Origin: a virus
Lineage: Duplodnaviria > Heunggongvirae > Uroviricota > Caudoviricetes
Length of the DNA: 64,000 nt
Direction: 5' to 3' (one strand)
Virus record (IMG/VR): IMGVR_UViG_3300028048_000103
Location: 1-64,000 of that record
The position numbers were made by a program, and so were the translations under genes. Below, one piece after another: positions 5,229 through 59,890 of this stretch (its first letter is position 1; each line of letters opens with the position of its first letter). The notes under the pieces were generated by a model. That model saw only the letters and a list, made by a program, of their open reading frames with translations. It ran no database searches and had not been told where the DNA came from.

Positions 5229-5255
5229 AATATTGTTGTATTTTTATATTTTATT

Positions 5256-5690: not shown

Positions 5691-5691
5691 A

Positions 5692-6081
5692 TTAAATCAA
5701 ATTTTTTAAGCAATACTTAATAGCTTCTTCGCAGGCTTCTTCGTAAGTATTATTGTGAGATTCCCTATCACAGCCTTTTGGTGCCCCGTCCTCATAGCTA
5801 TACCACACATAACTCATGTCTATATGTTGCTGTATTGATATAAAGATTTTATGTACTTCTCTCAGCCACTTCATTGCCATTTGGATGGTTGGTGCATCAA
5901 GGTATCTTTCAGGATATCTTGACCTGTCTGTAATATTATATTCACTGACAATTTTATCTAAATTATATTGCTTATCAGTATTCCAATTAAATCCCTTTTC
6001 CTTCAAGAGTTTTGCTGTTTCAAAGCTGACGTAATCTTCAGTAATCATATTATTTTGCATAAAAATTCCAAAAAGGTTCAA
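5692..6081 (-). CDS. hypothetical protein
   Basis: 129-aa ORF. Overlaps the next ORF by about 30 nt. Confidence 0.45.
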   Translation of the reverse strand: MNLFGIFMQNNMITEDYVSFETAKLLKEKGFNWNTDKQYNLDKIVSEYNITDRSRYPERYLDAPTIQMAMKWLREVHKIFISIQQHIDMSYVWYSYEDGAPKGCDRESHNNTYEEACEEAIKYCLKNLI

Positions 6082-6924: not shown

Positions 6925-7602
6925 TTACATCAGTTTATTCAAATATTTAATAAATTCTTCTATGATATAGTTTGACATATCATCAGGATGGGTAAACCCT
7001 TTTTTAGTGAGTTCATTTTTAAGTTCAGAATTTGTCCACAGTCCCCATTCATTTCTAATCCATCTTCCAAGTGAGTTGTGCATAGAGATTGCACCGTTTT
7101 CGATAAGATATTGTTTATCTTCTTTTGAAATTATTTTGGCAAGGGTAGACATTGCTTCATCAACTGTTTTAGGGACAGGGGTTTCATTTTCTACTTCAGT
7201 TTTATACATATTATCAGGTGCTTCCAATGCAAGTTTTTTTTCAATTAAACCTCTAAAATCAAAATGATGTGCATTGAGCCAATCAAGCCCCTTTTCGCTA
7301 AACAACATTGAACCATCTGATGCGTCATAAATAAAGGATAATCTTTCAAATTCAATCCTCTCTTCTTCTGTCATGCTTGACATTGGACGGAGATAAGGAC
7401 GATAATTCCAAATATCATATATATGTCCAATAGCCACACTATTAGATTTTGGGTATATCTGATTGGTGGATAATTGCATCGTATAGATATTGAAATCTGT
7501 CGGAACAAGTATCAAATCGGAATTTTCAAATCCTAATTTTACTCCATACGGCAACCTTGCACAAAGGTCTTTAAGTAGTAGTTGTTTTTCTTTCTCTGTC
7601 AT
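6925..7602 (-). CDS. family A paralog with about 90-aa C-terminal extension
   Basis: 225 aa. Carries MTEKEKQLLLKDLCARLPYGVK ... RPYLRPMSSMTEEE ... DWLNAHHFDFRGLIEKKLALEAPDNMYK plus an extra C-terminal domain. Its ATG overlaps the stop of an upstream small ORF as ATGA. Confidence 0.6.
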   Translation of the reverse strand: MTEKEKQLLLKDLCARLPYGVKLGFENSDLILVPTDFNIYTMQLSTNQIYPKSNSVAIGHIYDIWNYRPYLRPMSSMTEEERIEFERLSFIYDASDGSMLFSEKGLDWLNAHHFDFRGLIEKKLALEAPDNMYKTEVENETPVPKTVDEAMSTLAKIISKEDKQYLIENGAISMHNSLGRWIRNEWGLWTNSELKNELTKKGFTHPDDMSNYIIEEFIKYLNKLM

Positions 7603-7760
7603 AACTCTGATATTTTTTCAATAAATTCATCAAGCATCTCTATTTTGTCTTTGTTCGGATTGCCGGACATAATAGTACGCATAGTAAGAGGATACCAATC
7701 AAATTCTTTCTTTTTCTTTTTACACCAGTTAATTAAAACCCGTTTTTCTTCCTGTGTCAT
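7599..7760 (-). CDS. small ORF with family A N-terminus only (MTQEEKRVLINWCKKKKKEFDWYPL...)
   Basis: About 53 aa; not in the track because it is under 60 aa. ATGA overlaps on both sides join it to 7757..8035 and 6925..7602. It begins MTQEEK like the family A members. Confidence 0.3.
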   Translation of the reverse strand: MTQEEKRVLINWCKKKKKEFDWYPLTMRTIMSGNPNKDKIEMLDEFIEKISEL

Positions 7761-8056: not shown

Positions 8057-8227
8057 TTATTTTCTTAATATGTAATACAGGGGTATAGTAATAAGCCATA
8101 TAAATGATAAGAATAAATCCTTTATCCATCCTTTCCAAGAGTCATCATATGGTTTAAACGTACAATAGGCAATAAAAAAACCTACCCAATAAATTAATGA
8201 TATAATTATTGCAATTACAGTTATCAT
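8057..8227 (-). CDS. small membrane protein (about 57 aa)
   Basis: Hand-translated as MITVIAIIISLIYWVGFFIAYCTF...; not in the track. A promoter-like motif lies just upstream. Confidence 0.25.
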   Translation of the reverse strand: MITVIAIIISLIYWVGFFIAYCTFKPYDDSWKGWIKDLFLSFIWLITIPLYYILRK

Positions 8228-8264
8228 ATCTATTCAGTTTTGTTATGTTTTAACTTATACAAAT

Positions 8265-8288
8265 ATACAAATAAAAAAGTTAAATAAA
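8265..8288 (-). promoter_or_regulatory. class II (Bacteroides-type -7 box) promoter-like motif
   Basis: The + strand reads cttatacaaatatacaaataaaaaa. The reverse complement contains TATATTTG, matching TAnnTTTG. Confidence 0.35.
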
Positions 8289-8508
8289 AAAAAATATTAT
8301 ATTTTTATTTTATATAGGGATGGTGTTTAAGTTTCATTCTAATGATATCGAGTTTTGCTTTTTCCTGTGGGGACAAAGATGTATTTGTAACTATTGCCTT
8401 ATTTAAAAGTGTGATATCCTCATTGGTAGGTTTCCAATAATATTCTTTTTGTTGGCATTCATTTGTTTTTTCTTCCATACTCATAATGTTTATTTTATGA
8501 TTCAGTAA

Positions 8509-9000
8509 TTAAAATATTCTACGCATATTATCATTTAGTGGTTGGTACATCATATTATGAGAGGGTTCTATTATTTTTTCATAGACAATAGATTCTGAGG
8601 CAATGCCTTCATAAAGTGTATCGAAGTAGCCTTCTACATAATGAGTTCCTTGTGGTATAGCACATAGGGCGATTACATAATTTATGAAATTAGATGTGTT
8701 ATTATATTGTAACTTAGATTTCAGTTTACAAGCATCTTCAATATTTTTACATGAATGAAAAACGCCTATAGATATTGGATATCCATAACCTTTGACATAT
8801 GCTAATACATGATGATTAATTGCTTTTTGAAAATTTAGCAGCATATCATTATTAGATGAATAGATTTCATTTAGATTAATATTCATATGAGCATATGGTG
8901 TACGATAATCACCATATGGATTTTTTTCAAGCACTTTATATACAGTCAAATTTTCTTCAGTTGTTTTAACTGTTAATGGGCAGTTAACAAAAAGGCACAT
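8509..9000 (-). CDS. hypothetical protein
   Basis: 163-aa ORF. Confidence 0.45.
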   Translation of the reverse strand: MCLFVNCPLTVKTTEENLTVYKVLEKNPYGDYRTPYAHMNINLNEIYSSNNDMLLNFQKAINHHVLAYVKGYGYPISIGVFHSCKNIEDACKLKSKLQYNNTSNFINYVIALCAIPQGTHYVEGYFDTLYEGIASESIVYEKIIEPSHNMMYQPLNDNMRRIF

Positions 9001-9003
9001 AAA

Positions 9004-9222
9004 TTAGATTTTATTATAATAGTTACACCAGTTATCGCATTGTTCTTTTGAGTAAAAGGCGTTATTAAGGAAATTCATCAAATCTTGTGCGTTTGAGAAG
9101 CATGAGAGTATACCGAAAAAGGAATACGGTATGGACTGATAGATACCATTATTATTCTTTAGTGGATAATAAATTGTGAAATCATTAGATTCCTTACTAA
9201 AATCAATAATCATAACAAACAA
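9004..9222 (-). CDS. hypothetical protein
   Basis: 72-aa ORF directly abutting 8509..9000. Confidence 0.35.
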   Translation of the reverse strand: MFVMIIDFSKESNDFTIYYPLKNNNGIYQSIPYSFFGILSCFSNAQDLMNFLNNAFYSKEQCDNWCNYYNKI

Positions 9223-9366
9223 AAATTAAACATTAATATAATATGCAAAAACTGTACCAAAGTTTTTAATTTTTAAAAATATACAAAAAAAAAAATAAAT
9301 AAAAAAACTTGATTCTTTTTTGTATATATAGAATCAAGTCAGTGGGATTATATTATAATATTTTTT

Positions 9367-13610: not shown

Positions 13611-13726
13611 CAACTGTGATAGGACTCGAACCTATGACATCGGTATTAAAAGTACTAAAATAATTGCTGTTAATTTTCCCTATCGGAAAACTATGTTACG
13701 TGCTCTACCCACTGAGCTACACAGTT
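13611..13726 (-). tRNA. tRNA-like gene with about 40-nt insertion in the anticodon region
   Basis: The reverse complement gives an acceptor AACTGTG/CACAGTT, a D-arm TAGCTCAGTGGGTAGAGCA and a T-arm ATAGGTTCGAGTCCTAT. The central region is about 40 nt too long and contains the hairpin TTTTCC-gatag-GGAAAA. Confidence 0.5.
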
Positions 13727-14503: not shown

Positions 14504-15859
14504 TTATCCTATTTTTTTAATATTACACAAGCACTGATACCGAAGGGATTTGAACCAAGAAAGCATTTCATCTCTTGGACAGAGTGGTTCATAGAGAGAG
14601 TTTGATATTATGTCTATCATTGCATCAAACATTTCCTCATCCTTCTCACTCCACTCATTAGAACAGAGTTTTGCTACATCCTCATTATGCTTTTTATGAT
14701 TAAGAAAAAGGGCTTTGAGCCAAGCAATTTGCTCATTATATTTTCCAATGACCTTACCTGTTGTGGCGGAAGTATAATTTCTTTCGAATTCTATATCTTT
14801 GATAATACTCTGCCTTATCTTCTCATCCTCCTCGCTCCACTCTTGCGTTGGCTGAGGAATTATATGGTCAAGCAACCACAATTTGACAGATACACCATTT
14901 GCTTCCTCCTTCTCTAATTGATAGTGGTCTTCCGCAAATCTGATGCACTCAAGCACCTTTCCGAGCATTTCCTCATCTTCCTTGCTCCACTCCACGGGCT
15001 TGTCATATCTAACACGAATTGCATCTTTTAGCCAACTTCGCAGTGGTTCGTCTTTGATATAAGATAAACAGACATTTAGATTTTGTTCATCTTCCATATT
15101 CCACTCTGCTGATTTCTGCTCTTTCTGTTTTTCCTCCTTTTCTTTCCATCCCATGAAATGCACAGCGGTTTCCTCAATAGTTACTGCTATGTCCTCCCAA
15201 TCAAAATCATCAAGAGTTCTCTGTCCGTTTCCAAAGGTTTCATGGTACTTTTCCTCCGTGTACCTTTTGATTTCGGCTTCCAAAGCCAAATCCCTTGTAT
15301 TAACCTTGTGTTTGCCACTTTCGATGTCTGACTTAGGCTTTTTCTGCTGTCCATTATAAAAAGACATTCTTTCCCTACTATGCTTATAAATGTTCTCAGT
15401 TGTTAAATCTTTCTGCTTTTCCTCGTCCTCATCAACTTTTACTATCAGAACTTTAACTTTGTCACCATATGATAAATCACACTCATCAACCGGCACTATA
15501 AGATGCCAATCGTCATCATAGTTAATAGTTGCATCGAACATATCTTGTTTTATATGTTCCCACTGCATATCAAGATGTTCTTGAAGTTGTTGTGGACTAA
15601 ATAGTTCTTTCTGCTTTTTGAGCCAAGCAACATATCCATTCCTTGTTTCATTGGAAATATAATACTCGCCGATTGTTTCTATAAGAGAAATAAGTGATTC
15701 CCTTATTCTATCATCATCGCTCTCTTCAAGTACAGGGAAGATGTTTTGAATAGCATCTTCAATGGTATAATTATCTTGTATTGCTTGAGGGTCATTTAAC
15801 CACCATTGTGCTTTTTTTAAAGCCTCATCATAGGCTCTTGCTTTTTCTTCAGTTGTCAT
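14504..15859 (-). CDS. WSEEDE-motif protein (family B)
   Basis: 451 aa. Contains PTQEWSEEDEKIRQSIIKDIEFERNYTSATTGKVIGKYNEQIAWLKALFLNHKKHNEDVAKLCSNEWSEKDEE and PVEWSKEDEEM. Confidence 0.6.
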   Translation of the reverse strand: MTTEEKARAYDEALKKAQWWLNDPQAIQDNYTIEDAIQNIFPVLEESDDDRIRESLISLIETIGEYYISNETRNGYVAWLKKQKELFSPQQLQEHLDMQWEHIKQDMFDATINYDDDWHLIVPVDECDLSYGDKVKVLIVKVDEDEEKQKDLTTENIYKHSRERMSFYNGQQKKPKSDIESGKHKVNTRDLALEAEIKRYTEEKYHETFGNGQRTLDDFDWEDIAVTIEETAVHFMGWKEKEEKQKEQKSAEWNMEDEQNLNVCLSYIKDEPLRSWLKDAIRVRYDKPVEWSKEDEEMLGKVLECIRFAEDHYQLEKEEANGVSVKLWLLDHIIPQPTQEWSEEDEKIRQSIIKDIEFERNYTSATTGKVIGKYNEQIAWLKALFLNHKKHNEDVAKLCSNEWSEKDEEMFDAMIDIISNSLYEPLCPRDEMLSWFKSLRYQCLCNIKKIG

Positions 15860-18000: not shown

Positions 18001-18732
18001 TTATATTTCTATTTGAAGAATTTCATAAGATGGTTTATATTTTTCATTTATATATGAAACGTTTGCCATTTTAGTTCCTTCAATGTTTTCTAAATTATGG
18101 TTTCCACTATGAATGTGTCCACTAAAAAAATATTTAGGTTTCTTTTTCTTAATTTCTTCGGCTAATGGTAAATTACCAGCATCATAACCACTATTCCAAC
18201 CTTCTGTAATTGTTCCTATGTTGTTCAATGATGGCGAATCATGAGATATAACAATATCACAATTTTCAGGCATAAATGAATAATATCTTTTTAGTGTTTC
18301 ATCATTAACCATAAAAGCCCAATCACCAAAAATATGACAATATGGAGTACCAAATATTTTTAATGTTTTTATACCATTATCAGTAAAATATTCAAAATTA
18401 TAATCTTCATTATTAAGAATTTTTACTCTGTTTTTTGTTGTAATATTAAAACAATTAACATGTTCTTTTGATATTTGCAGACCGACAAAATCATGATTGC
18501 CCCAAACCATTACAACCTTACTCCATTCATTTTTAAATGGTAATGTGTTTATCCAATTAGCAAAATCGTGTTGAAACCAATTAATTTGATATGAAAAATA
18601 ATGACTATGTGCAGGGCAAATGTCACCGCAGATTAACAATAAATCAAACGGTGTTGTTATCTCAGGCAAATGGCCGTGCAAATCACTTGTTGCTAATATC
18701 TTTAAATTTTCCATCATTAAATCACTTTGCAA
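18001..18732 (-). CDS. calcineurin-like metallophosphoesterase
   Basis: 243 aa. Motifs DLHGH, GDICP, GNHDF and GHIHSGNH occur in the canonical order. Confidence 0.65.
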   Translation of the reverse strand: MQSDLMMENLKILATSDLHGHLPEITTPFDLLLICGDICPAHSHYFSYQINWFQHDFANWINTLPFKNEWSKVVMVWGNHDFVGLQISKEHVNCFNITTKNRVKILNNEDYNFEYFTDNGIKTLKIFGTPYCHIFGDWAFMVNDETLKRYYSFMPENCDIVISHDSPSLNNIGTITEGWNSGYDAGNLPLAEEIKKKKPKYFFSGHIHSGNHNLENIEGTKMANVSYINEKYKPSYEILQIEI

Positions 18733-26983: not shown

Positions 26984-27814
26984 AAAAATACGCCCATTTG
27001 TTCCTCCATGTTGCCACAGTATGTTGTGAAGGACTTCTCACGATATTAGCCCAATGCAACCTCTTTACGCTACTTCTGCACCTATATTTGGAATTAATGT
27101 TGCTTACCTACGTATACCCATCGCAAATTTTAACCTTGAACCTCTGTACATTGCTCCAATCTGTAGCAGGACTCTCCCAAGGTTGGCAGGAACAACCCAA
27201 CAAGACTATTTTCTATTGAGGATTTGAACCTCTGCACATCTTAATCATAGAAAAAAAACAGGAAACATTATAAAAACCCAATTTATTATGCTTAATAATA
27301 AGTTAATTTGCTGTATGTTTCCTTATAAAAATAAATACAAAAAATATCTAAAAAAAACTACTTGATAGTACAAAAAGATATTATTGGTTTAGCCAAAACC
27401 ATTTTGTTTCGATTAGTCCTCTACCTAACCGTGTAGGATTTCCTTTCCACATTTAGAATGGCTTATTCTATTTAGTATGTTGGCTAAGGAAATATTCTAA
27501 TCCCCAACAACTTTATTTTTCAAAAAAAAACGGATGCATGTCAATCGTATTCCGTTATTCTGCGTTAACCTCACATGCCAAGGTCATATAGTCCACAACA
27601 CACCCATATGACTAACTAGTATTTTCATTCTAAAAATTACTTAATAGAATATGAGCAGCCACTATTATAATGGAACCAATAAAACCACTATTGAATTTCT
27701 GCTATTGTTTAGTTTCTAATTTTTCAACATTGTCAAATAACTTACATTGCAAATATATAAACATTAATTGACAAAAACAAATTTATTTTTACTCAAACAT
27801 CAAAAAACTTTTTG

Positions 27815-27853
27815 TACTTCGGCTGCGACTCGAACGCAGGACCAACTGCTTAG
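27815..27853 (-). tRNA. 3' exon (positions 35-73) of intron-split tRNA-Arg (anticodon UCU)
   Basis: Reverse complement: CTAA-GCAGT-TGGTC-CTGCGTTCGAGTCGCAG-CCGAAGT-A. It pairs perfectly with the 5' exon at 28408..28441 (acceptor 7/7 including one G-U, anticodon stem ACTGC/GCAGT 5/5). Confidence 0.7.
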
Positions 27854-28407
27854 CTTACCACTATAACTTTCGTTACCAATATAAGACTAAAAATGACCTA
27901 CAGCACAAGAGGATTGCAGTCATTCCGTAACATCCCTTTTATGTTCCTCTTATTTCGGGTCTTTATATTGTTTGTGGTCTGGACTATCCCTTAACCATAT
28001 TGAAATCTTGCAAGATTGGATTAGGGTTCGTTCTTACCCCGAATAGCAGGTCGCTTTCCTGCACAGTTTGTTTTAATTTTAGAATCCAAATTTCAACTTA
28101 GGTTTCTTCCGTCTAGTCTCTACACACTGTCTATTACAAATACTGAAATGTAGCTTAATTGCATATATTTGCCTTCTATGCAATAACGCCTTTTCATTAC
28201 ATTCCCAATTAACACCTTTTGCAAACGAGGTGAGTATTTGTTTTTAACATTGGTTCGGTATTAGCATATATTAACAGGACTCTTCACCTGTCCGACTCAT
28301 ATAGAGTGTCTGATTTGATTTTATACTTAGCTTTCACCGAATTTGGAAGTTTCTACATCTAAAATTTCTTTTAGTGCACTCCTAATTAATTGATTATCAA
28401 TTACTTA
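27854..28407 (-). mobile_element. group I intron (about 554 nt) in the anticodon loop of tRNA-Arg(UCU), inserted after position 34
   Basis: Both flanking tRNA halves match exactly. The minus-strand reading has an R-like element GTAGAGACTA (28108-28117), an S-like GATAGTCCAGACC (about 27975-27990) and a P-like AATTCGGTGAAA (about 28335-28346) in the canonical order. It ends in G before the 3' exon, and the 5' exon ends in U. Confidence 0.6.
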
Positions 28408-28441
28408 AAGGCAGTTGCTCTATCCACTGAGCTACCGAAGC
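28408..28441 (-). tRNA. 5' exon (positions 1-34) of intron-split tRNA-Arg (UCU)
   Basis: Reverse complement: GCTTCGG-TA-GCTC-AGTGGATA-GAGC-A-ACTGC-CTT. Confidence 0.7.
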
Positions 28442-28465
28442 ATAAATAATATTTTTAAAAATTAG

Positions 28466-28504
28466 TGACCCCTGTGGGATTCGAACCCACGACCCCAACA
28501 TTAA
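28466..28504 (-). tRNA. 39-nt tRNA 3' half (anticodon N-U-U; acceptor AGGGGTC), 3' exon of the second intron copy
   Basis: Reverse complement: TTAA-TGTTG-GGGTC-GTGGGTTCGAATCCCAC-AGGGGTC-A. Same length and junction context (gtaccactataactttcgttacca) as the Arg 3' exon. Confidence 0.5.
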
Positions 28505-28932
28505 CGTACCACTATAACTTTCGTTACCAGTTGCAAACAAGGAGTTTAGCCCTATATTTACATACCTGTTTGTGGTCTGGACTGTATCTTAACCATATTG
28601 AAATCTTGCAAGATACTGTATGAAGAGATTTGCTGAGTTGCACAGCCTGTATCTAACTCCGGTTTCACTGGGAACATTCATACAATAATTTCAACTTAGG
28701 TTCCTCCTGTATAGTCTCTACACACTGTCTAAAGGTATTGCATTCTTGCAACTAAACTATCTCACTCCTTTTAACATTGGCTCGGTATTACCATCAGCAA
28801 CATACTTTCAAATCATTAATCCTCAGTATTCCCAAAGCATTCATTTACTTGTACGTTCTGTTAAGGTTTCACCGAATTAGGGAGGTTCTACATCCGAAGT
28901 TTCCTTCGGTGCACTCAAATTACACATTGTTC
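28505..28932 (-). mobile_element. second group I intron copy (about 430 nt), homologous to 27854..28407
   Basis: Shares four conserved blocks with intron 1: 3'-terminal accactataactttcgttacca, the S-like block at 28567-28612, the R-like block at 28688-28730, and the P-like block plus gtgcactc at 28870-28908. The central regions are divergent. Confidence 0.5.
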
Positions 28933-28967
28933 AAGACCGCTGCATTAGACCACTCTGCCACCTCACC
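28933..28967 (-). tRNA. tRNA 5' half resembling tRNA-Ser(UGA) (class II D-arm), 5' exon of the second intron copy
   Basis: Reverse complement: GGTGAGG-TG-GCA-GAGTGGTCTAA-TGC-A-GCGGT-CTT. This follows the architecture of a bacterial tRNA-Ser(UGA) 5' half. The acceptor GGTGAGG does NOT pair with the 3' half at 28466..28504. Confidence 0.45.
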
Positions 28968-29109
28968 GTAAAATAAAGATTATTCTGAACTCTGTCACCA
29001 TTAACAAATATTAGATAAAAATCTAATATTTAACAAATATTAGGTAAAAGTCTAATAATATTGTTAAACATTTATTCAATGTTACTGTCAGTTTTTTCTT
29101 TATTAAGAA

Positions 29110-29160
29110 AGTCACCATAGTATGCTGCAAGTTGGAATTGAACCAACAACTATATTCAGT
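29110..29160 (-). tRNA. orphan tRNA 3'-half-like element (T-arm GTTGGTTCAATTCCAAC, acceptor TTGCAGC)
   Basis: Good T-arm and 3' acceptor, but no canonical D or anticodon arm upstream. Possibly another split or degenerate tRNA. Confidence 0.25.
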
Positions 29161-29307
29161 TTTTTCATAATCACAGCCTTCGTGACCATATTTTATTTTC
29201 AATTTCACATATTCAATAAAATAATTTGTATTTATCAGTATTGTCAAAGAGCAATTAATTTCATTGCAAATATATAAATCTTTTTTTTAACAACAAAATT
29301 AATTTTA

Positions 29308-29378
29308 GTTGAAGGCAGAGGAATCGAACCTCTATTCTGGGAACCAAAATCCCATGTCTTGCCTTTAGACGAGCCTTC
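29308..29378 (-). tRNA. tRNA-Pro (anticodon UGG)
   Basis: Reverse complement: acceptor TGAAGGC/GCCTTCA, D-stem GTCT/AGAC, anticodon stem TGGGA/TCCCA with loop TTTTGGT, T-arm AGAGGTTCGATTCCTCT. Confidence 0.65.
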
Positions 29379-29405
29379 AATTTATTTCAAAGAACAATTG
29401 TTTAT

Positions 29406-29428
29406 CTTACAAATATCGTGCCAAAATA
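29406..29428 (-). promoter_or_regulatory. class I promoter-like motif upstream of tRNA-Pro
   Basis: cttacaaatatcgtgccaaaata. Confidence 0.4.
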
Positions 29429-29451: not shown

Positions 29452-29488
29452 CGGGAATGATAGGATTCGAACCTATAACCTACGGATT
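29452..29488 (-). tRNA. 3' exon of split tRNA-Asn (anticodon GUU)
   Basis: Reverse complement: AA-TCCGT-AGGTT-ATAGGTTCGAATCCTAT-CATTCCC-G. It pairs 7/7 (acceptor) and 5/5 (anticodon stem) with the 5' exon at 29591..29626. Confidence 0.6.
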
Positions 29489-29490
29489 AG

Positions 29491-29562
29491 ACTCAGCAAA
29501 AGGAATCGAACCTTTTTTTGGACTTGCAATGCCACCCGTCCTAACCATTAGACGATACTGAG
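29491..29562 (-). tRNA. tRNA-like element embedded inside the tRNA-Asn intervening sequence
   Basis: Reverse complement: acceptor CTCAGTA/TGCTGAG, D-arm GTCT-AATGGTTA-GGAC, T-arm AAAGGTTCGATTCCTTT. The anticodon-arm region GGTGGCATTGCAAGTCC does not form a canonical stem. Confidence 0.4.
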
Positions 29563-29590
29563 TTGGTTCGTTTCGGTGAACCATTCCGTT

Positions 29591-29626
29591 AACAGTCCGT
29601 TGCACTAACCGTTGTGCTACATTCCC
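29591..29626 (-). tRNA. 5' exon of split tRNA-Asn (GUU)
   Basis: Reverse complement: GGGAATG-TA-GCAC-AACGGTTA-GTGC-A-ACGGA-CTGTT(AA). Confidence 0.6.
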
Positions 29627-29638
29627 AATTATAAACTA

Positions 29639-29872
29639 CTATTCAGTAGTTTCAGTTTCTTCAGTCTTTACTGTATCTTCATTTTTAGGCATTGTTGCTG
29701 CTGTAACAGGTGCAACTGAATTCATCTTTTCATATTCCTCCTTCAACTTTTCAAGCCTCTTTTGTCTTGCCAACATAAGTCTCTTCTTTTCAGTAAGACT
29801 ATTTCTAACGTTTTCATTTGCATCCCTTCTTGGTGCATCAACATGTTTCTTAATGTGCTTTCTCTTTGTCAT
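29639..29872 (-). CDS. hypothetical basic K/E-rich protein
   Basis: 77-aa ORF embedded in the tRNA region. Confidence 0.4.
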   Translation of the reverse strand: MTKRKHIKKHVDAPRRDANENVRNSLTEKKRLMLARQKRLEKLKEEYEKMNSVAPVTAATMPKNEDTVKTEETETTE

Positions 29873-33161: not shown

Positions 33162-33944
33162 TTATTTTTTGTTATATTGTTCAATTATTCCATTTTTTGT
33201 ATTTAAAACAAAAGCCTGTCTTACGTCAAGGTCAGCCACCCAATTTTCTACAATTGGTGTATCTTGTAATTGTGTATGGCCACAAATAAAATGTACATTT
33301 GGATATTCAATGTTGTTTTCGTCAGAATATTCATTGATATCAGCCCAAACAATTGACCCATTGTCCCAACCATCCCAACCTCTATATCTTGAATATATAC
33401 CCATTGCTATTTCAAAATCATGTGTAGATTTTGTTTCATAATTTCGTCCGTTATCATATGCAGCATGAAACAGATTGTTAAAATATTCAGCATCAGGAAG
33501 ACCTTCATTGTTCCATTCAAAAAGTTTATTTTTTACCCAAGTATCAAACCAATCTTTTCTTACACCTGCATGTGAAAAAAAATAACGTTTATTATTGATA
33601 GTTGTCTCCCAAGCAAGGTCAAATAATTTTATATTAGAAAAATATAATTTATTAAGTTTATTATAGTTTGTATAGTCAGTTCGACATTCACATATATTAC
33701 TATTAATGTATGAAAAATCATGATTTCCCATTAATAATACTACTTTATCATTATTTTCTTTTTTAAACTTAATAATTTCTTTGAAAATTTTCATTGCATG
33801 TGCATTGGTTATCTCTTCATATGGATATGGTGATACATAATCCCCTAAAAAAATAACCTTATCATAGTCATCAATATGTGCACATGGTTCAATCCAAAAT
33901 TCTCTTCCGTGTACATCAGGAATTATTAGTATTTTGTTCATCAT
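33162..33944 (-). CDS. calcineurin-like Ser/Thr phosphatase / metallophosphoesterase
   Basis: 260 aa. Motifs DVHG, GDYV, GNHD and a later GH... histidine motif in order. The stretch IIPDVHGREFW...VIFLGDYVSPYP...LLMGNHDFSY is PPP-family-like. Confidence 0.6.
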   Translation of the reverse strand: MMNKILIIPDVHGREFWIEPCAHIDDYDKVIFLGDYVSPYPYEEITNAHAMKIFKEIIKFKKENNDKVVLLMGNHDFSYINSNICECRTDYTNYNKLNKLYFSNIKLFDLAWETTINNKRYFFSHAGVRKDWFDTWVKNKLFEWNNEGLPDAEYFNNLFHAAYDNGRNYETKSTHDFEIAMGIYSRYRGWDGWDNGSIVWADINEYSDENNIEYPNVHFICGHTQLQDTPIVENWVADLDVRQAFVLNTKNGIIEQYNKK

Positions 33945-34988: not shown

Positions 34989-36563
34989 TTATAATCCGAC
35001 AGATAATGGATATTTAATTGAGGGATATGACTGATATTCTTTAATCTTAATATCACCATATGTAAACTCTTCTATATTTTTCCTCTCAGGATTAAGCCAT
35101 AACTTAGGAAGTCCATACATGTGTGGATTTCTATTTTTTTGCTCTTTTTCGTAAATTTCAATTTGGTTTTCATACATATGTACATCACCACCGCTAAATA
35201 TAAGTTCATCTACACCCATATTACAACATTGCGCAATCATATAAGTCATTATAGAATAGGAAGTTATATTGTACGGTAAACCTAAACCACAATCCACGCT
35301 GCGCTGATTCCACATACAACTTAGTTTTCTTGTTGGAACACCTGCATTGTCAAATATTCTATTACTTCTTTCCTCATCATCAGGATACCATATAACAGAC
35401 CCATCAGCATAATTATCAACTACGTATTGTTCTCTTTCTTTGAAAGTCATTTTCTTCGTATAGAACTGACAGCAATAGTGACAAGGAGGCAATGCCATTG
35501 TTTTTAATTCACCAACGTTCCAAGCGGAAACAATAAGCCTTCTGTCATCAGGGTTAGTTTTAAGTTTATTAATAAGTTCATTAATTTGGTCAACACCGTT
35601 CCAATTTCTCCATTGTTTACCATAAACAGGGCCTAAATCACCAAACACATACTGTTTATAAGTAGATAAATTATCTTCGATACTTTTAGGGTATATTTTA
35701 GTTTGTTTTAAAACCTCAGATAAAAAATCATTTTTTGAAAGTTGTGGTGTTGTATTATTTTTGGTAAGTTCCAAATAATACCTATATGCATCATCATCCC
35801 AAATATGAACACCATTTTCTACTAAATATTTAATATTGGTTTCACCTTTTAAAAACCAAAGAAGTTCATGAATAATTCCTTTTGTAAATACTTTTTTTGT
35901 CGTGAGTATTGGTAAACCCTCTTTTAAATTAAATCTAAGTTGTTTACCAAATAATGACCTTGTTTTACCTGCTCTTGTATCTTTGATTTCACCATGTTCA
36001 ATAATATCATTAACTAAATTAAGATATTGTTCATCAACATGATTGTTCATACCATTACATTTAATATATGTCATTGCATAAGCCTTTCTATGTTCTATCT
36101 CAATAGGTTGACCAATTTCCTCCCAATTTGGATTCGTTACAATATCTGGAAAAAAAGTATCAGCATCAGGTACATCAACCGCAAGCATATCAATCATCAC
36201 CTTGTCTACTAAATTATGTGATAAAGCATAATCATATATACTTGCACCACCAATAATGAAAATTTCATCATCTATTGTTTTAGCATAACTTATTGCTTCT
36301 TCGACATCACTGACAACTTTTACATCTTTATATCTTGCTTCATATTCTTTTCTTGAAGTAACAACAATATTGGTTCTGTTTGGAAGTGGATGACCAATTG
36401 CTTCAAATGTTTTTCTACCCATAATAACAGGATGTCCTGTTGTTGTGTCTTTAAACCATTTTAAATCCGCCTTATTATTCCAAGGCATATTTCCTTTTAT
36501 ACCAATAGGGAAACCATGATTTGGTACATAGTTTCCCACGGCAACAATAATATTAACACTCAT
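34989..36563 (-). CDS. bifunctional dihydrofolate reductase-thymidylate synthase (DHFR N-terminal, TS C-terminal)
   Basis: 524 aa. The N-terminus IVAVGNYVPNHGFPIGIKGNMPWN...DLKWFKDTTTGHPVIMGRKTFEAIG...RTNIVVTS matches DHFR. The C-terminus PVYGKQWRNW...DDRRLIVSAWNVGEL...MALPPCHYCCQFY matches ThyA including the catalytic Cys. Confidence 0.8.
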   Translation of the reverse strand: MSVNIIVAVGNYVPNHGFPIGIKGNMPWNNKADLKWFKDTTTGHPVIMGRKTFEAIGHPLPNRTNIVVTSRKEYEARYKDVKVVSDVEEAISYAKTIDDEIFIIGGASIYDYALSHNLVDKVMIDMLAVDVPDADTFFPDIVTNPNWEEIGQPIEIEHRKAYAMTYIKCNGMNNHVDEQYLNLVNDIIEHGEIKDTRAGKTRSLFGKQLRFNLKEGLPILTTKKVFTKGIIHELLWFLKGETNIKYLVENGVHIWDDDAYRYYLELTKNNTTPQLSKNDFLSEVLKQTKIYPKSIEDNLSTYKQYVFGDLGPVYGKQWRNWNGVDQINELINKLKTNPDDRRLIVSAWNVGELKTMALPPCHYCCQFYTKKMTFKEREQYVVDNYADGSVIWYPDDEERSNRIFDNAGVPTRKLSCMWNQRSVDCGLGLPYNITSYSIMTYMIAQCCNMGVDELIFSGGDVHMYENQIEIYEKEQKNRNPHMYGLPKLWLNPERKNIEEFTYGDIKIKEYQSYPSIKYPLSVGL

Positions 36564-39140: not shown

Positions 39141-39980
39141 TTATAAATTAATTAACTCTTCATTATCATTTTCAATATCATCAATATTATTTATTACAAA
39201 TTTGTAATAACCACCATCAGGATTAGGGACATCAATATATTCATAAATAACATCATCCTTGTCTGATATGTCCCATAACACAAAACCATGTTCGGATATA
39301 CTTTCACCAAAATTTTTTTGATTAATTGATGAACAGTACACGATTTTAACACCGTTCTTTTTAATTTCCTGTTTTTTATGAATATGGCCGGCAATAACAA
39401 AATCACAATTTTCAAAAACATTGGGGTCAACACCATTTTCGGTAACACGATTAGTTGCAGTAATTGCACCATTGACATCACCATGGATTAAACCAATGTA
39501 TATGTTATCATCACCGTATTTTGTTTTTGCTGCTTCTATATCAGGAGGGTTAAAACCTTCAAATGATGAATAAAGACACCAAACAACATTATCATCTTTA
39601 AAACAATCTGATTTATATTTAAGTTGTTTGTCAAGATAAATAACATTTTTCATTTTGTTAATTTCGAATAGAGGTGTTATTGAATCAACCCTTTCTATAT
39701 TATTCATTAACATATCATGGTTTCCTGCAATAACAATTGTTTTAGTTATTTTACCAAGTTCATCTAAAAACCAATAAGCCAATAATTGTGATTCATTCGA
39801 AATATTAATTTTTTGATTAAATAAATCACCTGCAACCACAATTCTTACATTATCTTTTTCCTCCTTTTCAACAATCTCTTTACATTGATTTATAAATGTG
39901 GTTAAAATAGTTTTTAATTCGTCAATCCCCTGATAATTAGGAATATGTATATCACTGCATGCAATTATTTTAGTTATCAT
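39141..39980 (-). CDS. SbcD/Mre11-like metallophosphoesterase (putative nuclease)
   Basis: 279 aa. Motifs ACSDIHI, VVAGDLF, AGNHD and GHIH in the canonical order. Confidence 0.5.
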   Translation of the reverse strand: MITKIIACSDIHIPNYQGIDELKTILTTFINQCKEIVEKEEKDNVRIVVAGDLFNQKINISNESQLLAYWFLDELGKITKTIVIAGNHDMLMNNIERVDSITPLFEINKMKNVIYLDKQLKYKSDCFKDDNVVWCLYSSFEGFNPPDIEAAKTKYGDDNIYIGLIHGDVNGAITATNRVTENGVDPNVFENCDFVIAGHIHKKQEIKKNGVKIVYCSSINQKNFGESISEHGFVLWDISDKDDVIYEYIDVPNPDGGYYKFVINNIDDIENDNEELINL

Positions 39981-43927: not shown

Positions 43928-44470
43928 TTAATCTTTTCTTATTAAAATGTCAATTATTTTTTCAATGTCTTTTTCAGTTATTCCTGTTTCTCTATCAATA
44001 TGTATAAAGTTATTTTTTTGTCCTAATAGAAAATCAGTATCATCATCAATAATTACAAATTCATAATCAATCTGTTCATCGCCATATCTATGCCTATAAT
44101 ATGGTACACCATCAGGCGAAAAACCATATTTAGTACCTAATCCTTTAAAATTTTCTATTAACCACTTTTCTATTTCGTTACCTCGGCACATCCAATCAAC
44201 ATGAAAATGGTCAGTATAACCAATAATTGGTAGTTCAAGGCCACAATCTTTTAGTGCTTTTTCTGTCCTTCCTTCATCATATCCCCAAGAAGATGATATA
44301 ACTATTTCAACATTATAATTTTTAAGTGTATTAAGTAGTTTACATTTTTCGGGGTCAATGTAACCTTTGCGTTTCATTAAAAAAGGTATAGAAGCAAGAC
44401 AACCATCTATGTCAAGGAAGACTATACGTTTATAACTACACATAACTAGTGTATTTTTAAATTTTCTCAA
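43928..44470 (-). CDS. HAD-like phosphatase (tentative)
   Basis: 180 aa. Motif I is FLDIDGCL and motif IV is IIDDDTD. Confidence 0.4.
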   Translation of the reverse strand: MRKFKNTLVMCSYKRIVFLDIDGCLASIPFLMKRKGYIDPEKCKLLNTLKNYNVEIVISSSWGYDEGRTEKALKDCGLELPIIGYTDHFHVDWMCRGNEIEKWLIENFKGLGTKYGFSPDGVPYYRHRYGDEQIDYEFVIIDDDTDFLLGQKNNFIHIDRETGITEKDIEKIIDILIRKD

Positions 44471-45470
44471 CTAACTTATTTTCAAGCCAATCCTTGCACT
44501 TATAGAATCGTGAATTTGAGTTCTCATAATCATTGATAACAACCTTGCAAGCTTCAATAGCTGTTTGGCGCATACGTTCATCTTCCTCACTCCATTTTAT
44601 TAATCCTCTCAGATATGCATAATGTGTGTCCTTTGGAATATCACACCACTCAGTTATGCTATTGTGAGTGTAGTAATCTTCACTATCATATACATTCACC
44701 ATCCAACTACCATCATAACGAGTAAGCAGGACGTTTCCAAAACTGTCTTTTGCAAGAACCAACCTTTTACTATCAGGTAGAGAATCAGTCACTTTATGCC
44801 ATTCGTACTCACATTTTGTGACAGATGGAACAGAATCTGTGGATTTTGAACCTTCTTTCTGCTTTTCGATAAATGAATCATATATATCTACAATCTTGTT
44901 TACATTATAACCTTTCCTAACTGGTATATATGCTCCATTAAACGCAAGAACAAGACGGTCTCCTTCATTCGCTATTCTGATTGCTTGTTCTGCTGCGATG
45001 GTTATATCAGTCCCAGCCAATGGTCTGAAAACATATTCCTTTTCTATGTTTTCTTTCTGCTTTTCAAGACCAAATAGGTAACCTTCCCTGAATCCTTTGG
45101 CATGAGCACATTCGATATAATCATCTTCAAAAGAGTCTACTGTTCGAGAACCACATTCGTTATAAGACTTCCAAGCCTTGTCAAGAGCAGACTCAAAAGA
45201 TTCTTGATTGTCATAGACAGGTTGCATCCTGTTATATTTCTGCTTTTCGAGCCAAGCAATCATATCAGATACGGAAACAGTACCATTTGGCAATCCATTT
45301 GGTTTATCACCTTGTTCTTTAATGTACCTTTTAATTTCTCGAATCATCCTCTCATCCTCGCTCTCTGCGAGTTCGGGAATGAGAGTTTCTAATGCTTCTT
45401 GGTCCACTAGGTGAAGGCATGTGCCATTTATGAACTCTTTTACAATTTTTATTGCTTCTTCTCTTGTCAT
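44457..45470 (-). CDS. WSEEDE-motif protein (family B)
   Basis: 337 aa. The N-terminus MTREEAIKIVKEF...LIPELAESEDERMIREIKRYIKEQ is shared with 45783..46901. Ends with WSEEDERMRQTAIEACK. Confidence 0.55.
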   Translation of the reverse strand: MTREEAIKIVKEFINGTCLHLVDQEALETLIPELAESEDERMIREIKRYIKEQGDKPNGLPNGTVSVSDMIAWLEKQKYNRMQPVYDNQESFESALDKAWKSYNECGSRTVDSFEDDYIECAHAKGFREGYLFGLEKQKENIEKEYVFRPLAGTDITIAAEQAIRIANEGDRLVLAFNGAYIPVRKGYNVNKIVDIYDSFIEKQKEGSKSTDSVPSVTKCEYEWHKVTDSLPDSKRLVLAKDSFGNVLLTRYDGSWMVNVYDSEDYYTHNSITEWCDIPKDTHYAYLRGLIKWSEEDERMRQTAIEACKVVINDYENSNSRFYKCKDWLENKLVEKI

Positions 45471-45620: not shown

Positions 45621-45785
45621 TTAGCAATCGTCATACAGTTCGCTTTCTTCTTTAGAAGGATAATCAGGAAAATCTCCAGGATACCATAATTCCTCTTCAA
45701 TTTCCTTTGCTATCTTCTCATCCTCTTCACTCCACTCTTGCTTGGGTTTGGACAACATTTTGTCATCTATATCTTCTTTCTTTCA
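45621..45785 (-). CDS. small ORF (about 54 aa) carrying KQEWSEEDEK motif
   Basis: Hand-translated as MLSKPKQEWSEEDEKIAKEIEEELWYPGDFPDYPSKEESELYDDC. It is followed by a further start-less KQEWNEDKNK segment at about 45510-45600. These look like remnants of the family B module. Confidence 0.3.
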
Positions 45786-46901
45786 CTCTGTAACAATTTC
45801 TCCTATTTTGCATTTGTGGAATCCCATTTTCTCTGCAAGTGCGCGAAGCCAATTAATTTCTTTATCTTTTGCTACCTTAAATGTATCACTATCCGCAAAC
45901 TGTTTTGAAGTTTCAATTGATTTTATACAACGAGAAAGCATTCTTTCATCCTCCTCGCTCCACTCTGTTGGCTTACATAAGCCATATTTTTTAGGATGTT
46001 CAACTACTTCCTTTTTCCCATCTTCAAATGCTTCATTGATGTTTCTAAACACTTCTTGAAGTTTGTCCCACTCTGCTGACTTCTGCTTAATGGATACATA
46101 TTTATCATAAAAATAAAGTGGATTGTCCTTGCATTTCTTTAATTCAGCCTCGTAATCTACTGGCTTCTGCTCATCAGCAACCATTGGAGTAGGAACAGGG
46201 GCAATATAGGGTTCTTTATGAACCATCATTTCAGATAGGTCTGCTGACTTCTGCTCCACAGGTGTATAATCCTTCTGTGGAATATTGGCACATTCATAGT
46301 CAAATGGCTTCTTCGCCAGCAAATATGTGTAGTCAGTGAAAGTGATAATATGATTTGCTAAAAGATGGTATAAGTATTCTTCTCTTGGTATTTTACTATC
46401 AGGTTCTACATTTGTTTCTCCTGATGGCTTCTGCTCTTTCTGCTCAACTTCTTTCATTGCCTTGTTATATCCTGCGGTAAAGCCGTTCCGTCTGCCTTCC
46501 TCATACCCTTTCTTATATTCATCACAAGTGAAGCACCCATTAGGATGTTTCTGCTCTTTCTGCTTTTCAATCTCAGAAGCATAACACATTCTACCATCAG
46601 TCGTGTAAAACATTCCTGTCTTGTCAATATGTGGCTTGTCAGGGTTTTTTACGTTATCACTTTTAAACCATCGAATGCCTGTTTCTTTCTGCTTTTCAAG
46701 CCAAGCGAGAATATTTGGAATTTCAAGGTTTATCCATGATTCTACATGTAACTCCTTAAAATACTTAACTATAACTTTCCTAATTCTCTCATCCTCGCTT
46801 TCTGCGAGTTCAGGAACAAGGGTTTCGACAGCATCCTTAGTCTCTTTCCACATAGTAGGCATCGCTTCCTTGATTTTCTTTATTGCTTCTTCTTTTGTCA
46901 T
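45783..46901 (-). CDS. WSEEDE-motif protein (family B)
   Basis: 372 aa. Carries MTKEEAIKKIKEA...LVPELAESEDERIRKVIVKYFKEL and PTEWSEEDERMLSRCIKSIE. Confidence 0.55.
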   Translation of the reverse strand: MTKEEAIKKIKEAMPTMWKETKDAVETLVPELAESEDERIRKVIVKYFKELHVESWINLEIPNILAWLEKQKETGIRWFKSDNVKNPDKPHIDKTGMFYTTDGRMCYASEIEKQKEQKHPNGCFTCDEYKKGYEEGRRNGFTAGYNKAMKEVEQKEQKPSGETNVEPDSKIPREEYLYHLLANHIITFTDYTYLLAKKPFDYECANIPQKDYTPVEQKSADLSEMMVHKEPYIAPVPTPMVADEQKPVDYEAELKKCKDNPLYFYDKYVSIKQKSAEWDKLQEVFRNINEAFEDGKKEVVEHPKKYGLCKPTEWSEEDERMLSRCIKSIETSKQFADSDTFKVAKDKEINWLRALAEKMGFHKCKIGEIVTE

Positions 46902-59521: not shown

Positions 59522-59890
59522 TTATCTTTTGTTATTTTTAATTGTTTTTATTTTTTCCTTTATTAGTTTTTGTTCTAATTTTCTTTTTATAATATCACCA
59601 TGGCAACTTTTAGGTTTGCAAAAACAACCAAGATATATATTATCACCATTTTTATAGTGTTTATATATTTCGTCAACAGCATCAGTAAATTCTTTATTAT
59701 GACCATACATTACATCAAAATATTCACTATATTTTTCTATCGCTTCTTCTCTATCTTCACATTGAAAAAGAGCAAGTGTTTTGTTTTTATCCAAATGTGT
59801 ATAGGGATTACCTAAAGCACTACCTCTGCCGACATAAAAATATATTCCATCTGTTGGCTTTTCATCATTTATGTTTATGACATTAATCAT
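59522..59890 (-). CDS. DUF4326-like protein (GRxSxxGNP(F/Y) motif)
   Basis: 122 aa. YFYVGRGSALGNPY matches the hallmark DUF4326 motif, a family commonly found next to macro domains. Confidence 0.4.
   Translation of the reverse strand: MINVININDEKPTDGIYFYVGRGSALGNPYTHLDKNKTLALFQCEDREEAIEKYSEYFDVMYGHNKEFTDAVDEIYKHYKNGDNIYLGCFCKPKSCHGDIIKRKLEQKLIKEKIKTIKNNKR

Follow-up and report, generated by a model that had tools for sequence, protein, structure and literature searches.

The locus described here raises a simple question: what becomes of a transfer RNA (tRNA) gene whose anticodon loop is interrupted by a sequence that itself looks like a tRNA? The gene in question lies in the window, i.e., the whole 64,000-nt stretch that was analysed (positions 1 to 64,000 of IMG/VR record IMGVR_UViG_3300028048_000103, assigned to the Caudoviricetes), which probably derives from a large phage with a host among the Bacteroidota. 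It is a minus-strand tRNA-Asn(GUU) gene at 29452-29626, split by 102 nt. From sequence comparisons, we infer that the transcript loses the insert and so yields a working tRNA-Asn, and we see an even chance that 29490-29591 is a true RNA-level intron of a wider family. By our comparative definition, this family comprises compact (~80-120 nt) structured introns in the anticodon loops of large-phage tRNA genes, on contigs of 138-541 kb whose hosts are known or suspected Bacteroidota.

Sequences of this kind have been met before. The tRNA introns of the Lak megaphages were called enigmatic, one of them being described as a sequence that could code for a tRNA of its own; they are missing from some genomes and were negative in Rfam (Devoto et al. 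2019, PMC6784885, whose Table S6 lists four of them). A jumbo-phage survey of 2026 repeats the observation (PMC13037316). Neither study gives a mechanism, and our literature search found no paper giving one for such phage tRNA introns. The sequence-only reading of the window had called the arrangement very unusual, a description that stands with the qualification that the same phenomenon is reported in Lak phages (PMC6784885) and in jumbo phages generally (PMC13037316). The window insert is an instance, of a distinct 5'-motif subtype, of these reported but unexplained tRNA-like introns of large phages. The present analysis adds the architecture common to the family, a splice rule, the set of invariant bases, the evidence for selection, and the recurrence of the 5' motif elsewhere.

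The outer gene is complete in every part. Read on the minus strand, it runs GGGAAUG UA GCAC AACGGUUA GUGC A ACGGA CUGU[102 nt]UAA UCCGU AGGUU AUAGG UUCGAAU CCUAU CAUUCCC G, with an acceptor stem paired at 7/7 positions (GGGAATG/CATTCCC), a D arm GCAC/GTGC, an anticodon stem paired at 5/5 (ACGGA/TCCGT), a T arm ATAGG-TTCGAAT-CCTAT, and G as discriminator. All the stems that the sequence-only reading listed for a tRNA-Asn(GUU) split in its anticodon loop are therefore present on this strand, and Rfam recognizes the gene over its full length (RF00005, model 1-71, 59.4 bits, E=2.6e-10 for the whole window) with a single large insertion after CUGUUA. The cloverleaf, the GUU anticodon, G73, and the anticodon arm are all those of a tRNA-Asn. 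When the precursor is spliced in silico, ARAGORN calls tRNA-Asn(gtt); the predicted product has the loop CUGUUAA, i.e., Asn(GUU), and the predicted junction is ACGGACUGU^UAAUCCGU (junction sequence GCAACGGACUGUUAAUCCGUAGGUU; ^ marks a splice site here and below). No second tRNA-Asn gene was found within the 64-kb window. Run without introns, ARAGORN reports at this gene solely the inner "tRNA-Ala(tgc)" at 29490-29562, and in its intron mode it gives a tRNA-Arg(tct) interrupted by 102 nt. The intron-permissive check suggested by the sequence-only reading thus returns the expected intron length, together with an isotype, Arg(UCU) and not Asn, that the family-wide rules and the tRNA body disfavour. 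The suggested folding of the precursor by minimum free energy (z=-2.6) did not recover the outer cloverleaf and is not informative.

The size and the history of the insert follow from relatives of the window, which were gathered via the adjacent 77-aa open reading frame (ORF; 29639-29872) and its homologues, giving 19 further contigs, with two more from IMG/VR. An uninterrupted 73-nt tRNA-Asn(GTT) occupies exactly the same site in six of these contigs (L001, L002, L005, L010, L020, and L021), and the sequence ...CTGTTAATCCGT... in L001, L005, L010, L020, and L021 fixes the excess in the window at exactly 102 nt. A TAA repeat at either end of the insert leaves four equivalent placements, from which the exon 1/intron boundary used here is chosen by the family rule (3 nt before CGG). 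The interrupted allele of the window is found unchanged in L003, L004, L006, L008, L009, and L011, and slightly diverged copies occur in L012 and L015-L019, whose neighbouring ORF is 76-79% identical to that of the window. Identical or near-identical interrupted alleles are thus found in at least 12 independent metagenome contigs, hence the interruption is not a chance event; SRR8442993, ERZ27252073, DRR5955xx, and SRR27373461 are among the samples in which it occurs. The interrupted and uninterrupted alleles differ across the whole tRNA body despite their common flanks, and either allele is found on either flank haplotype, which means that the tRNA-Asn gene travels as a cassette through recombination. 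Two origins of the insert were considered and rejected. A target-site duplication or a miniature inverted-repeat transposable element is at odds with a repeat of just 3 nt (TAA), missing in other members, and with the lack of terminal inverted repeats; and the AACGGA repeat at the 5' junction is not an exon duplication, as its ACGG belongs to the conserved 5' motif and is also found in non-Asn and free-standing copies.

Coordinates of the interrupted tRNA-Asn(GUU) gene and its parts (window positions).
Feature	Position	Strand	Remarks
Whole interrupted tRNA-Asn(GUU) gene	29452..29626	-	175-nt precursor body; Rfam RF00005, 59.4 bits, full model
Exon 1	29592..29626	-	tRNA positions 1-35: acceptor 5' strand, D arm, stem ACGGA, loop CUGU; segmented base by base
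Intron	29490..29591	-	102 nt; absent from the allele in L001, L002, L005, L010, L020, L021
Intron lead UAA	29589..29591	-	Family pattern NNA; third base A in 15/15 family members (including Lak Table S6)
5' motif CGG-AAU-GGUUC-A-CCG-AAAC-GAACC	29565..29588	-	5-bp hairpin S2, which covaries across members
Linker	29564	-	1 nt, A; G in L012
Inner tRNA-like domain	29491..29563	-	ARAGORN tRNA-Ala(tgc) call at 29490-29562; covarying 13-bp acceptor+T stack
Inner "anticodon arm" region	29516..29537	-	Poorly paired, rapidly evolving; loop AUUGCAA / AUCGCAG / AUCACAG
Terminal C of intron	29490	-	Directly past inner closing stem; C in 15/15 intronic members
Exon 2	29452..29489	-	Loop UAA, stem UCCGU, variable loop, T arm, acceptor 3' strand, discriminator G

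Within the insert, both elements that the sequence-only reading had pointed out, a tRNA-like module (called as a tRNA by ARAGORN) and a GGTTC/GAACC hairpin (29565-29582), are present, and its remark that the insert is too small for a group I intron is borne out by the length of 102 nt and by the lack of group I features. In the hairpin motif, the loop CCG could pair with the upstream CGG to make a possible H-type pseudoknot; since CGG and CCG never vary, this pairing has no covariation support. Searches of the insert and of the 5' motif against Rfam (E<=1) matched no family apart from tRNA. The inner module has an acceptor-like stem of 8 bp (ACUCAGUA/UGCUGAGU), a D arm GUCU-AAUGGUUA-GGAC, and a T arm AAAGG-UUCGAUU-CCUUU. 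An alignment of the concatenated acceptor-like and T-arm segments of 11 members (7 of the window type and 4 from Lak) is gap-free; the segments were picked by eye and are contiguous, anchored on the T-loop and the terminal C. In this alignment the 13-bp acceptor+T stack is paired in 143/143 cells, with changes on both sides in 12 of the 13 pairs, and slid registers pair at <=43%. The T-loop UUCGA and the GG of the D-loop are conserved across members. The inner domain takes a variant form in L061 and L129, and the stack has 12 bp in L062b; C comes directly after a closing stem in all members.

The rest of the inner unit does not look like a tRNA that decodes. Its anticodon stem forms 3 of 5 pairs, its "anticodon" differs among close relatives (TGC, CGC, or CAC), the alanine identity pair G3:U70 is replaced by C3-G70, and the anticodon arm is variable, degenerate, or absent in other members of the family. 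For these reasons the inner unit is a tRNA-like structure, and the idea, raised in the sequence-only reading, that it is a real alternative tRNA overlapping the outer one can be set aside. As a separate observation, a 76-nt tRNA-Glu(UUC)-like element (Rfam 35 bits, with a 5-nt connector after the acceptor strand) lies directly downstream of tRNA-Asn in some relatives, its presence being variable (L009 ~555-630, L010 ~376-450, L020, and L021). Its acceptor strands, TGCTGAGT/ACTCAGTA, match the inner acceptor strands of the intron, ACTCAGTA/TGCTGAGT, in swapped order, the bodies of the two elements being unrelated.

The insert is not alone, pattern scans having yielded 10 further members in tRNA arrays of other large phages. 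A metagenome scan with the 18-nt hairpin of the intron recovered four more interrupted tRNAs, namely L035 (Asn), L044 (Asn), L036 (Thr), and L059 (Ile-GAU), and degenerate scans of IMG/VR added five, L061 (Arg-CCU), L062a (Arg-UCU), L062b (Asn), L129 (Val-UAC), and L136 (Ile2/Met-CAU), the last with a tRNA body that resembles E. coli ileX. When three pieces of the window intron were used as exact patterns against IMG/VR, no match was obtained, and a pattern scan of genome contigs for further members returned chance matches only. In all the further members the outer tRNA is intact (Rfam scores of 48-54 bits for L036, L044, and L059), and all of them lie in long tRNA arrays on contigs of 138-411 kb, some with transfer-messenger RNA (tmRNA) genes. 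They have in common the motif NNA-CGG-NNU-[5 bp]-A-CCG-AAAC-[5 bp], in which the S2 hairpin covaries (GGUUC/GAACC, AGCCC/GGGCU, UGUUC/GAACA, UAUCC/GGAUA, and AGUCC/GGACU). From 5' to 3', the family architecture begins with a 3-nt lead whose last base is A, followed by a small hairpin or pseudoknot-like motif, a linker of 0-12 nt, a stem-closed mimic of the acceptor/T/D "elbow" of tRNA, and an invariant C.

The four introns of Table S6 in PMC6784885 fit this architecture and form its second subtype. Like the window insert, they sit in the anticodon loop of a phage tRNA, have a similar length (79-114 nt vs 102), hold an inner tRNA-like module with a UUCGA T-loop, vary in presence among related genomes, are very highly conserved, and match only tRNA in Rfam; a comparison by hand gives the same order of modules, from the 3-nt lead (AUA/UUA vs UAA) through hairpin, linker, and 13-bp acceptor+T stack to the C and exon 2. 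They differ in their 5' part, where a plain hairpin of 4-5 bp carries an A-rich loop of 6 nt and is followed by an A/U linker of 10-12 nt, whereas the window intron has the CGG-NNU-S2-A-CCG-AAAC-S2' motif and a 1-nt linker. The phages differ as well, Lak having ~26% GC and code 15 and the window phage ~30% GC, with no clear signal when stop-codon recoding was tested in the window. Homology of primary sequence to the Lak introns was not found, as blastn with these introns returned Lak genomes only, and blastn with the window region matched no phage record.

The 24-nt motif CGG-NNU-GGUUC-A-CCG-AAAC-GAACC also occurs outside tRNA introns, at L033 266-289, L041 1274-1297, L050 1043-1066, L034 3257, L046, L049 704, and L060 724. 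The copies in L033, L041, and L050, which are three related elements, resemble a 5' untranslated region and stand ~20 nt before a ribosome binding site and ATG. The motif also opens non-coding units in Bacteroidota-like contigs, and it heads free-standing tRNA-like units in L034, L046, and L049, where a promoter-like sequence, TGGCAC-N5-TTGC, precedes it.

A single rule places the boundaries throughout the family: counted from the 5' motif, the 5' site is 3 nt upstream, and the terminal C immediately precedes the 3' site. Applied to ten precursors, the rule restored a 7-nt anticodon loop every time, and 9 of the 10 products were recognized by ARAGORN as the tRNA expected from the body. The loop bases are split between the exons as 3+4 (Thr, Ile, Val, and Ile2), 4+3 (Asn and Arg), or 5+2 (Lak Thr, Gly, and Phe), so that the position of the intron varies by tRNA (34/35, 35/36, or 36/37). 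On the exon side there is no consensus at -1 (U, C, A, or G), and the invariant bases, A at +3 and the terminal C, are on the intron side. The predicted splice sites therefore follow landmarks of the intron itself and not a fixed position of the tRNA. The comparison of tRNA-Thr in Lak-A1 (with intron) and Lak-C1 (intron-less) makes the junctions unambiguous, CUUGU^UUACAAUC...CAUAGAGC^AAUGAGC. The 3' site of the rule is thereby fixed independently, directly after the C past the inner stack, and the 5' junction comes 3 nt ahead of the hairpin; by the same token, we place the 3' splice site of the window gene after C29490. The rule also bears on a published assignment. The intron tRNA listed as Tyr(GTA) in Lak (L029, Lak-B1 129586-130037; Lak-A1 in Table S6) combines a class I body with G73 and a D arm like that of tRNA-Asn, and under the rule it becomes Asn(GTT), split at 35/36 like the window gene, hence its Tyr isotype is probably wrong and Asn the true one. 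Pairing of the intron ACGGR with the 3' strand of the exon 2 anticodon stem, a possible guide helix, is seen in 7 of 10 members and is weak in Arg-CCU, Val, and Ile2.

The evidence that carries the argument for removal is the unequal pace at which exons and introns change. Between the window and L012, none of the 73 exon positions differs, against 8/102 in the intron, 8/70 in the adjacent spacer, and ~18% of the neighbouring ORF (exons vs intron plus spacer, Fisher one-sided p=0.003). The eight intron changes comprise one in the linker, a compensatory change of an inner acceptor-like pair from A-U to G-C, four in the "anticodon" region, and one in a variable stretch; in L018, another pair of the acceptor-like stem has gone from A-U to G.U. 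A sharper contrast comes from L044 and L062b, whose flanks are unrelated, whose exons are identical at 75 of 75 positions, and whose introns are 65% identical with compensatory changes in the stems (p=9e-11). In addition, the Asn members have five different acceptor stems, all perfectly paired. These comparisons show the exons to be under much stronger purifying selection than the intron. Exons that are kept while the inserts diverge show that selection acts on the split gene. This argues for loss of the insert from the RNA, most strongly in the case of the L044/L062b pair. Of the explanations offered in the sequence-only reading, a processing-dependent or self-cleaving intron is the one that the comparative data favour most.

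How removal might proceed can be sketched from the conserved parts. RNase P and RNase Z recognize the acceptor stem, the T-loop, and the GG portion of the D-loop of a tRNA, and RNase Z cuts one unpaired base past the acceptor stem. The conserved inner parts of the introns are this same portion of a tRNA, and the 3' junction lies one base past the stem, which is why a 3' cut guided by the inner domain is favoured. The tRNA-like domain would present the 3' junction to the enzymes that process tRNA ends, an enzyme of the RNase Z type cutting behind the first unpaired base that follows the inner stem and RNase P acting at the 5' side of the domain; the conserved 5' motif would direct the 5' cut, either by self-cleavage or by recruiting some other nuclease; pairing within the tRNA body would keep the two exon halves together; and an RtcB- or Rnl-type RNA ligase acting on anticodon loops would join them. 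In these particulars the scheme is doubtful. Sites that track the fold of the intron, at three positions of the loop and with no exon consensus, exclude both the rules of group I introns and enzymes that measure from the mature tRNA domain.

Several points weigh against removal of the insert and against this scheme. The support for removal comes from selection as read in sequences, and the identity of exons between distant contexts could reflect a recent transfer of the cassette. The invariance of ACGG, U, and ACCGAAAC is partly imposed by the search patterns. We know of no bacterial enzyme that cuts 3 nt upstream of a small hairpin, an RNase P cut at the 5' end of the inner domain would leave ~27 nt on exon 1, and the C follows a 13-bp, not a 12-bp, stack in most members, so that an RNase Z measuring from the elbow would cut one base earlier. 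Genes for an RNA ligase, a splicing endonuclease, or a CCA enzyme were not found among ~45 ORFs of the window and 10 ORFs of L035 and L062, where the search yielded only a HAD_SAK_2 domain, a Macro domain, and metallophosphatases. Finally, the tRNA array of the window includes at least one apparently broken gene (a Ser 5' exon with a foreign 3' exon), and damaged tRNA genes are thus tolerated there.

Against this background, one may ask whether the gene is spliced at all. The outer tRNA could be a scaffold, or give stable halves, from which RNase P and RNase Z free the inner RNA as the useful product, which could be, e.g., a regulatory RNA, a primer, or a decoy that draws off anticodon nucleases, with no ligation and no functional tRNA-Asn. 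The inner acceptor, T, and D modules are indeed conserved and covarying, the upstream hairpin could shield the new 3' end left by RNase P, the 5' motif with a tRNA-like unit stands free behind promoter-like sequences in L034 and L049 and can thus be a gene of its own, and the inner anticodon-like loop evolves fast, as a decoy would. We nevertheless regard this explanation as unlikely, as it does not account for the single intron-based rule that restores a 7-nt loop with the right anticodon in 7 isoacceptor types, nor for the invariant bases of the exon anticodon loop; a scaffold would need no Asn identity elements (G73 and GUU), and the relative with the intact allele shows that the phage uses tRNA-Asn at this site. 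A related thought is that the insertion, selfish or accidental, has inactivated tRNA-Asn and left a young pseudogene, spread by recombination or by gene conversion driven by homing endonucleases in tRNA arrays. Other insertions of the array also vary in presence (group I introns, the extra tRNA-Glu-like unit, and the chimeric Ser gene), the L062 tRNA array has GIY-YIG and Vsr-like endonuclease genes, and the whole tRNA body differs between alleles, as it would after co-conversion. A pseudogene would, however, hardly keep perfect exons when intron divergence has reached 3-8% in one lineage and, in another, 35%; the outer stems covary among members, the five different Asn acceptor stems being fully paired, and the same design recurs in at least 8 tRNA types and two intron subtypes, all of which makes this account very unlikely.

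If the insert does leave the RNA, the agent could instead be the insert itself, as a new small self-splicing or self-cleaving ribozyme whose active site, made up of the 5' motif and the terminal C, would cleave at the two junctions or, failing that, at the 5' junction alone, with joining by a ligase or by the reverse reaction. The invariant bases are on the intron side of both junctions (A at +3 and the terminal C) and there is no exon consensus at -1; members of the GGUUC type have a linker of 0-1 nt, and coaxial stacking would bring the 3' C beside the 5' lead; and, like small ribozymes, the 5' motif turns up again in other non-coding settings. A precedent exists in the HDV-like theta ribozymes, which process phage tRNA ends in Bacteroidota gut phages (PMC10879173). 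Against a ribozyme, no known ribozyme family was matched in Rfam, even at E<=1, and threading by hand onto HDV-like and hammerhead folds fails (a P1 starting at +1 is impossible, S1 and S2 cross where they should nest, and CUGANGA is missing); the Lak-type members have a plain hairpin, an A-rich loop, and a long linker, so that the putative core is not family-wide; and the CGG/CCG pairing lacks the support of covariation. We take this possibility to be quite unlikely. Extremely improbable is a known type of intron, be it a degenerate group I intron or a bulge-helix-bulge (BHB) intron of archaeal or eukaryotic kind, or a product that is really tRNA-Arg(UCU), spliced as CU^GUUAACGG...GCUGAG^UCUAA. 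Group I introns do occur in neighbouring tRNAs of the same array, and the Arg splice proposed by ARAGORN has U at -1 and G at the end of the intron, as group I introns have. But 102 nt is too small for a P3-P9 core, no intron was matched in Rfam (E<=1), and across the family the intron ends in C, not in G, with any of U, C, A, or G standing at -1. Inspection by hand finds no 4-bp helix flanked by 3-nt bulges, and the position, 34/35 to 36/37, is not the canonical 37/38 of BHB introns. As for tRNA-Arg, the body is Asn-like (GGACUGUUAAUCCGUAGGU, G73, and no A20), a tRNA-Arg(UCU) is already present at 27814-28441, and the allelic gene in relatives is Asn. Size, boundary bases, topology, and the absence of Rfam matches likewise led us to discard the group I, BHB, hammerhead, HDV-like, and theta readings.

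Placing RNA-level removal of the insert beside known systems shows what is shared and what is not. Bacterial tRNA introns are, in the textbook view, self-splicing group I introns. Like the window intron, they interrupt anticodon loops, are mobile, vary in presence between relatives, and co-occur in this array; they differ in their length of >=200 nt, their catalytic core, and their U at -1 and terminal G, whereas the window intron has 102 nt, ends in C, and is coreless. The BHB introns of archaea and eukaryotes are spliced by proteins, namely the splicing endonuclease and the ligases RtcB or Trl1, and some host another RNA, e.g., the C/D box RNA in archaeal tRNA-Trp. The likeness here is that they are short and non-self-splicing, that their halves are held by the mature tRNA body, and that they need ligation; the window intron differs in its lack of a BHB, its bacterial host, and sites set by landmarks of the intron, and to our knowledge bacterial hosts have no splicing endonuclease. 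tRNA-like structures also act as processing signals, as in the MALAT1 mascRNA, the tRNA-miRNA of MHV68, and the tRNA punctuation of mitochondria. These too place an acceptor/T/D mimic without a working anticodon arm at a cut site, where an upstream structure could cap the 3' end, but they only direct cutting, while the flanks of the window intron would need to be rejoined precisely. The theta ribozymes are HDV-like RNAs that adjoin gut-phage tRNAs, the tRNA-related end being set by a cut at their own 5' edge; an RNA ligase and a CCA enzyme are enriched among their phages (Kienbeck et al. 2024, PMC10879173). They share with the window intron that they are small structured RNAs of the tRNA arrays of Bacteroidota gut phages with a critical C after a stem and before an A-rich joiner. 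They differ in lying downstream of tRNAs and not inside one, and their nested double pseudoknot (P1 at +1, catalytic C at the start of J4/2) is not recovered when the intron is threaded by hand, there being no partner for P1 before the inner stem; Rfam found no HDV-type match to the intron.

The gene stands in a window of ~30% GC that is densely coded on the minus strand, with a BACON-domain protein, a DHFR-TS fusion, ClpP, a sigma-70 factor, a DnaG-like primase, and helicases among the identified proteins and at least 18 tRNA genes between 13.6 and 31.8 kb; related IMG/VR contigs measure 108 and 363 kb, the longer being 3300028886_000029. The array holds further oddities. tRNA-Lys(UUU) at 13611-13726 (minus strand, Rfam 46.4 bits) has a 43-nt insert within the anticodon stem, between positions 28/29 (CG^UAACAUAG UUUUCC GAUA GGGAAAA UUAACAGCAAUUAUUUUA^GUA, ^ here marking the ends of the insert). 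Across 7 related contigs (L022-L028) this insert does not change, unlike the exons, which differ at the D-loop, the variable loop, and the T-loop. It is not of the pseudoknot-plus-tRNA-like type, and may represent a small intron of some other kind or an extra arm that is tolerated. tRNA-Arg(UCU) at 27814-28441 (minus strand) has a 554-nt group-I-like intron by ARAGORN in intron mode, on which the Rfam group I model is silent even at E<=1. A tRNA-Ser(UGA) 5' exon (~28463-28972, minus strand) is followed by a group-I-like intron homologous to the former and then by a 3' exon (UUAAUGUUGGGGUC GUGGG UUCGAAU CCCAC AGGGGUC A) that is unable to pair with the Ser acceptor strand and has no matching 5' exon in the window. 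This split gene could be chimeric, broken, or trans-spliced; a complete Ser gene is found in L001 at 8427-9236, where an extra insert of ~200 nt (8460-8655), flanked by TCTTGAA direct repeats, lies between exon 1 and the group I intron. tRNA-Gln(UUG) at 29308-29379 (minus strand), intron-less in the window, has a ~590-nt group I intron in relatives (L001 7437-8062, L012, L015, and L010), a second presence/absence polymorphism only 70 nt from the Asn gene. A minimal tRNA-like element of acceptor and T arms only (29123-29177, minus strand, Rfam tRNA 23 bits) is replaced in L001 by a longer unclassified structured element (8195-8300).

Two sequence motifs of the window are probably phage promoters. 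TGGCAY-N5-TTTGY, with sigma-54-like spacing, occurs in 10 copies, always on the coding strand and upstream of genes or tRNAs (minus-strand starts at 1521, 4376, 6898, 16189, 17977, 23355, 29409, 30189, 31779, and 47261), the copy at 29409-29423 lying between tRNA-Asn and tRNA-Gln; GATTTATATATTTGCA recurs three times before tRNAs (13748, 29265, and 31230). Among proteins, the window encodes a "Swiss Army Knife RNA repair" HAD domain (43928-44470, minus strand, E=1e-17), a Macro domain (59883-60359, minus strand), and three calcineurin-like phosphoesterases (18001-18732, 33162-33944, and 39141-39980, the last on the minus strand), which could have functions in healing RNA ends, none of them being diagnostic. 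Three paralogous proteins without a family match (14504-15859, 44457-45470, and 45783-46901, minus strand) have an N-terminal "EEAIK...LVPELAESEDERIR" and a repeated "EKQKE / WSEEDE". The DHFR-thymidylate synthase fusion, at 34989-36563 (minus strand), is of a type typical of protists and plants and unusual for a phage. Outside the window, the tRNA array of L062, a 393-kb phage with two introns of the present family, includes genes for a Vsr/DUF559-like (4960-5919) and a GIY-YIG, SegE-like (7132-7722) endonuclease, both on the minus strand, which are candidate drivers of cassette exchange.

In the broadest form of our proposal, which we put forward tentatively as something short of probable, these elements would represent a third kind of tRNA intron beside the group I and BHB kinds, with sites set by its own fold (the 5' pseudoknot-like motif, the elbow mimic, and the invariant C) and with removal via RNase P/Z and an anticodon-loop ligase or via a new small ribozyme, the 5' motif being a new RNA module that is also used outside introns. 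What the comparisons establish is that small, structured inserts that are not group I introns split tRNA genes in a bacterial virus, and selection says that the split genes still work. If they are spliced, a route of tRNA splicing as yet undescribed in bacteria or phages would exist, relying on RNase P/Z and RNA-repair ligases or on a new ribozyme. The definition of the family makes the "enigmatic" Lak observation testable, as it comes with splice rules, with bases that never vary, with covarying helices, and with ~15 members, the intron-less alleles serving as controls. It also indicates that such tRNAs are missed or mis-typed, as with the Lak "Tyr" that is probably Asn and the window gene that ARAGORN calls Ala or Arg, and mis-typing of this sort distorts the tRNA inventories behind inferences of codon adaptation and recoding in large phages.

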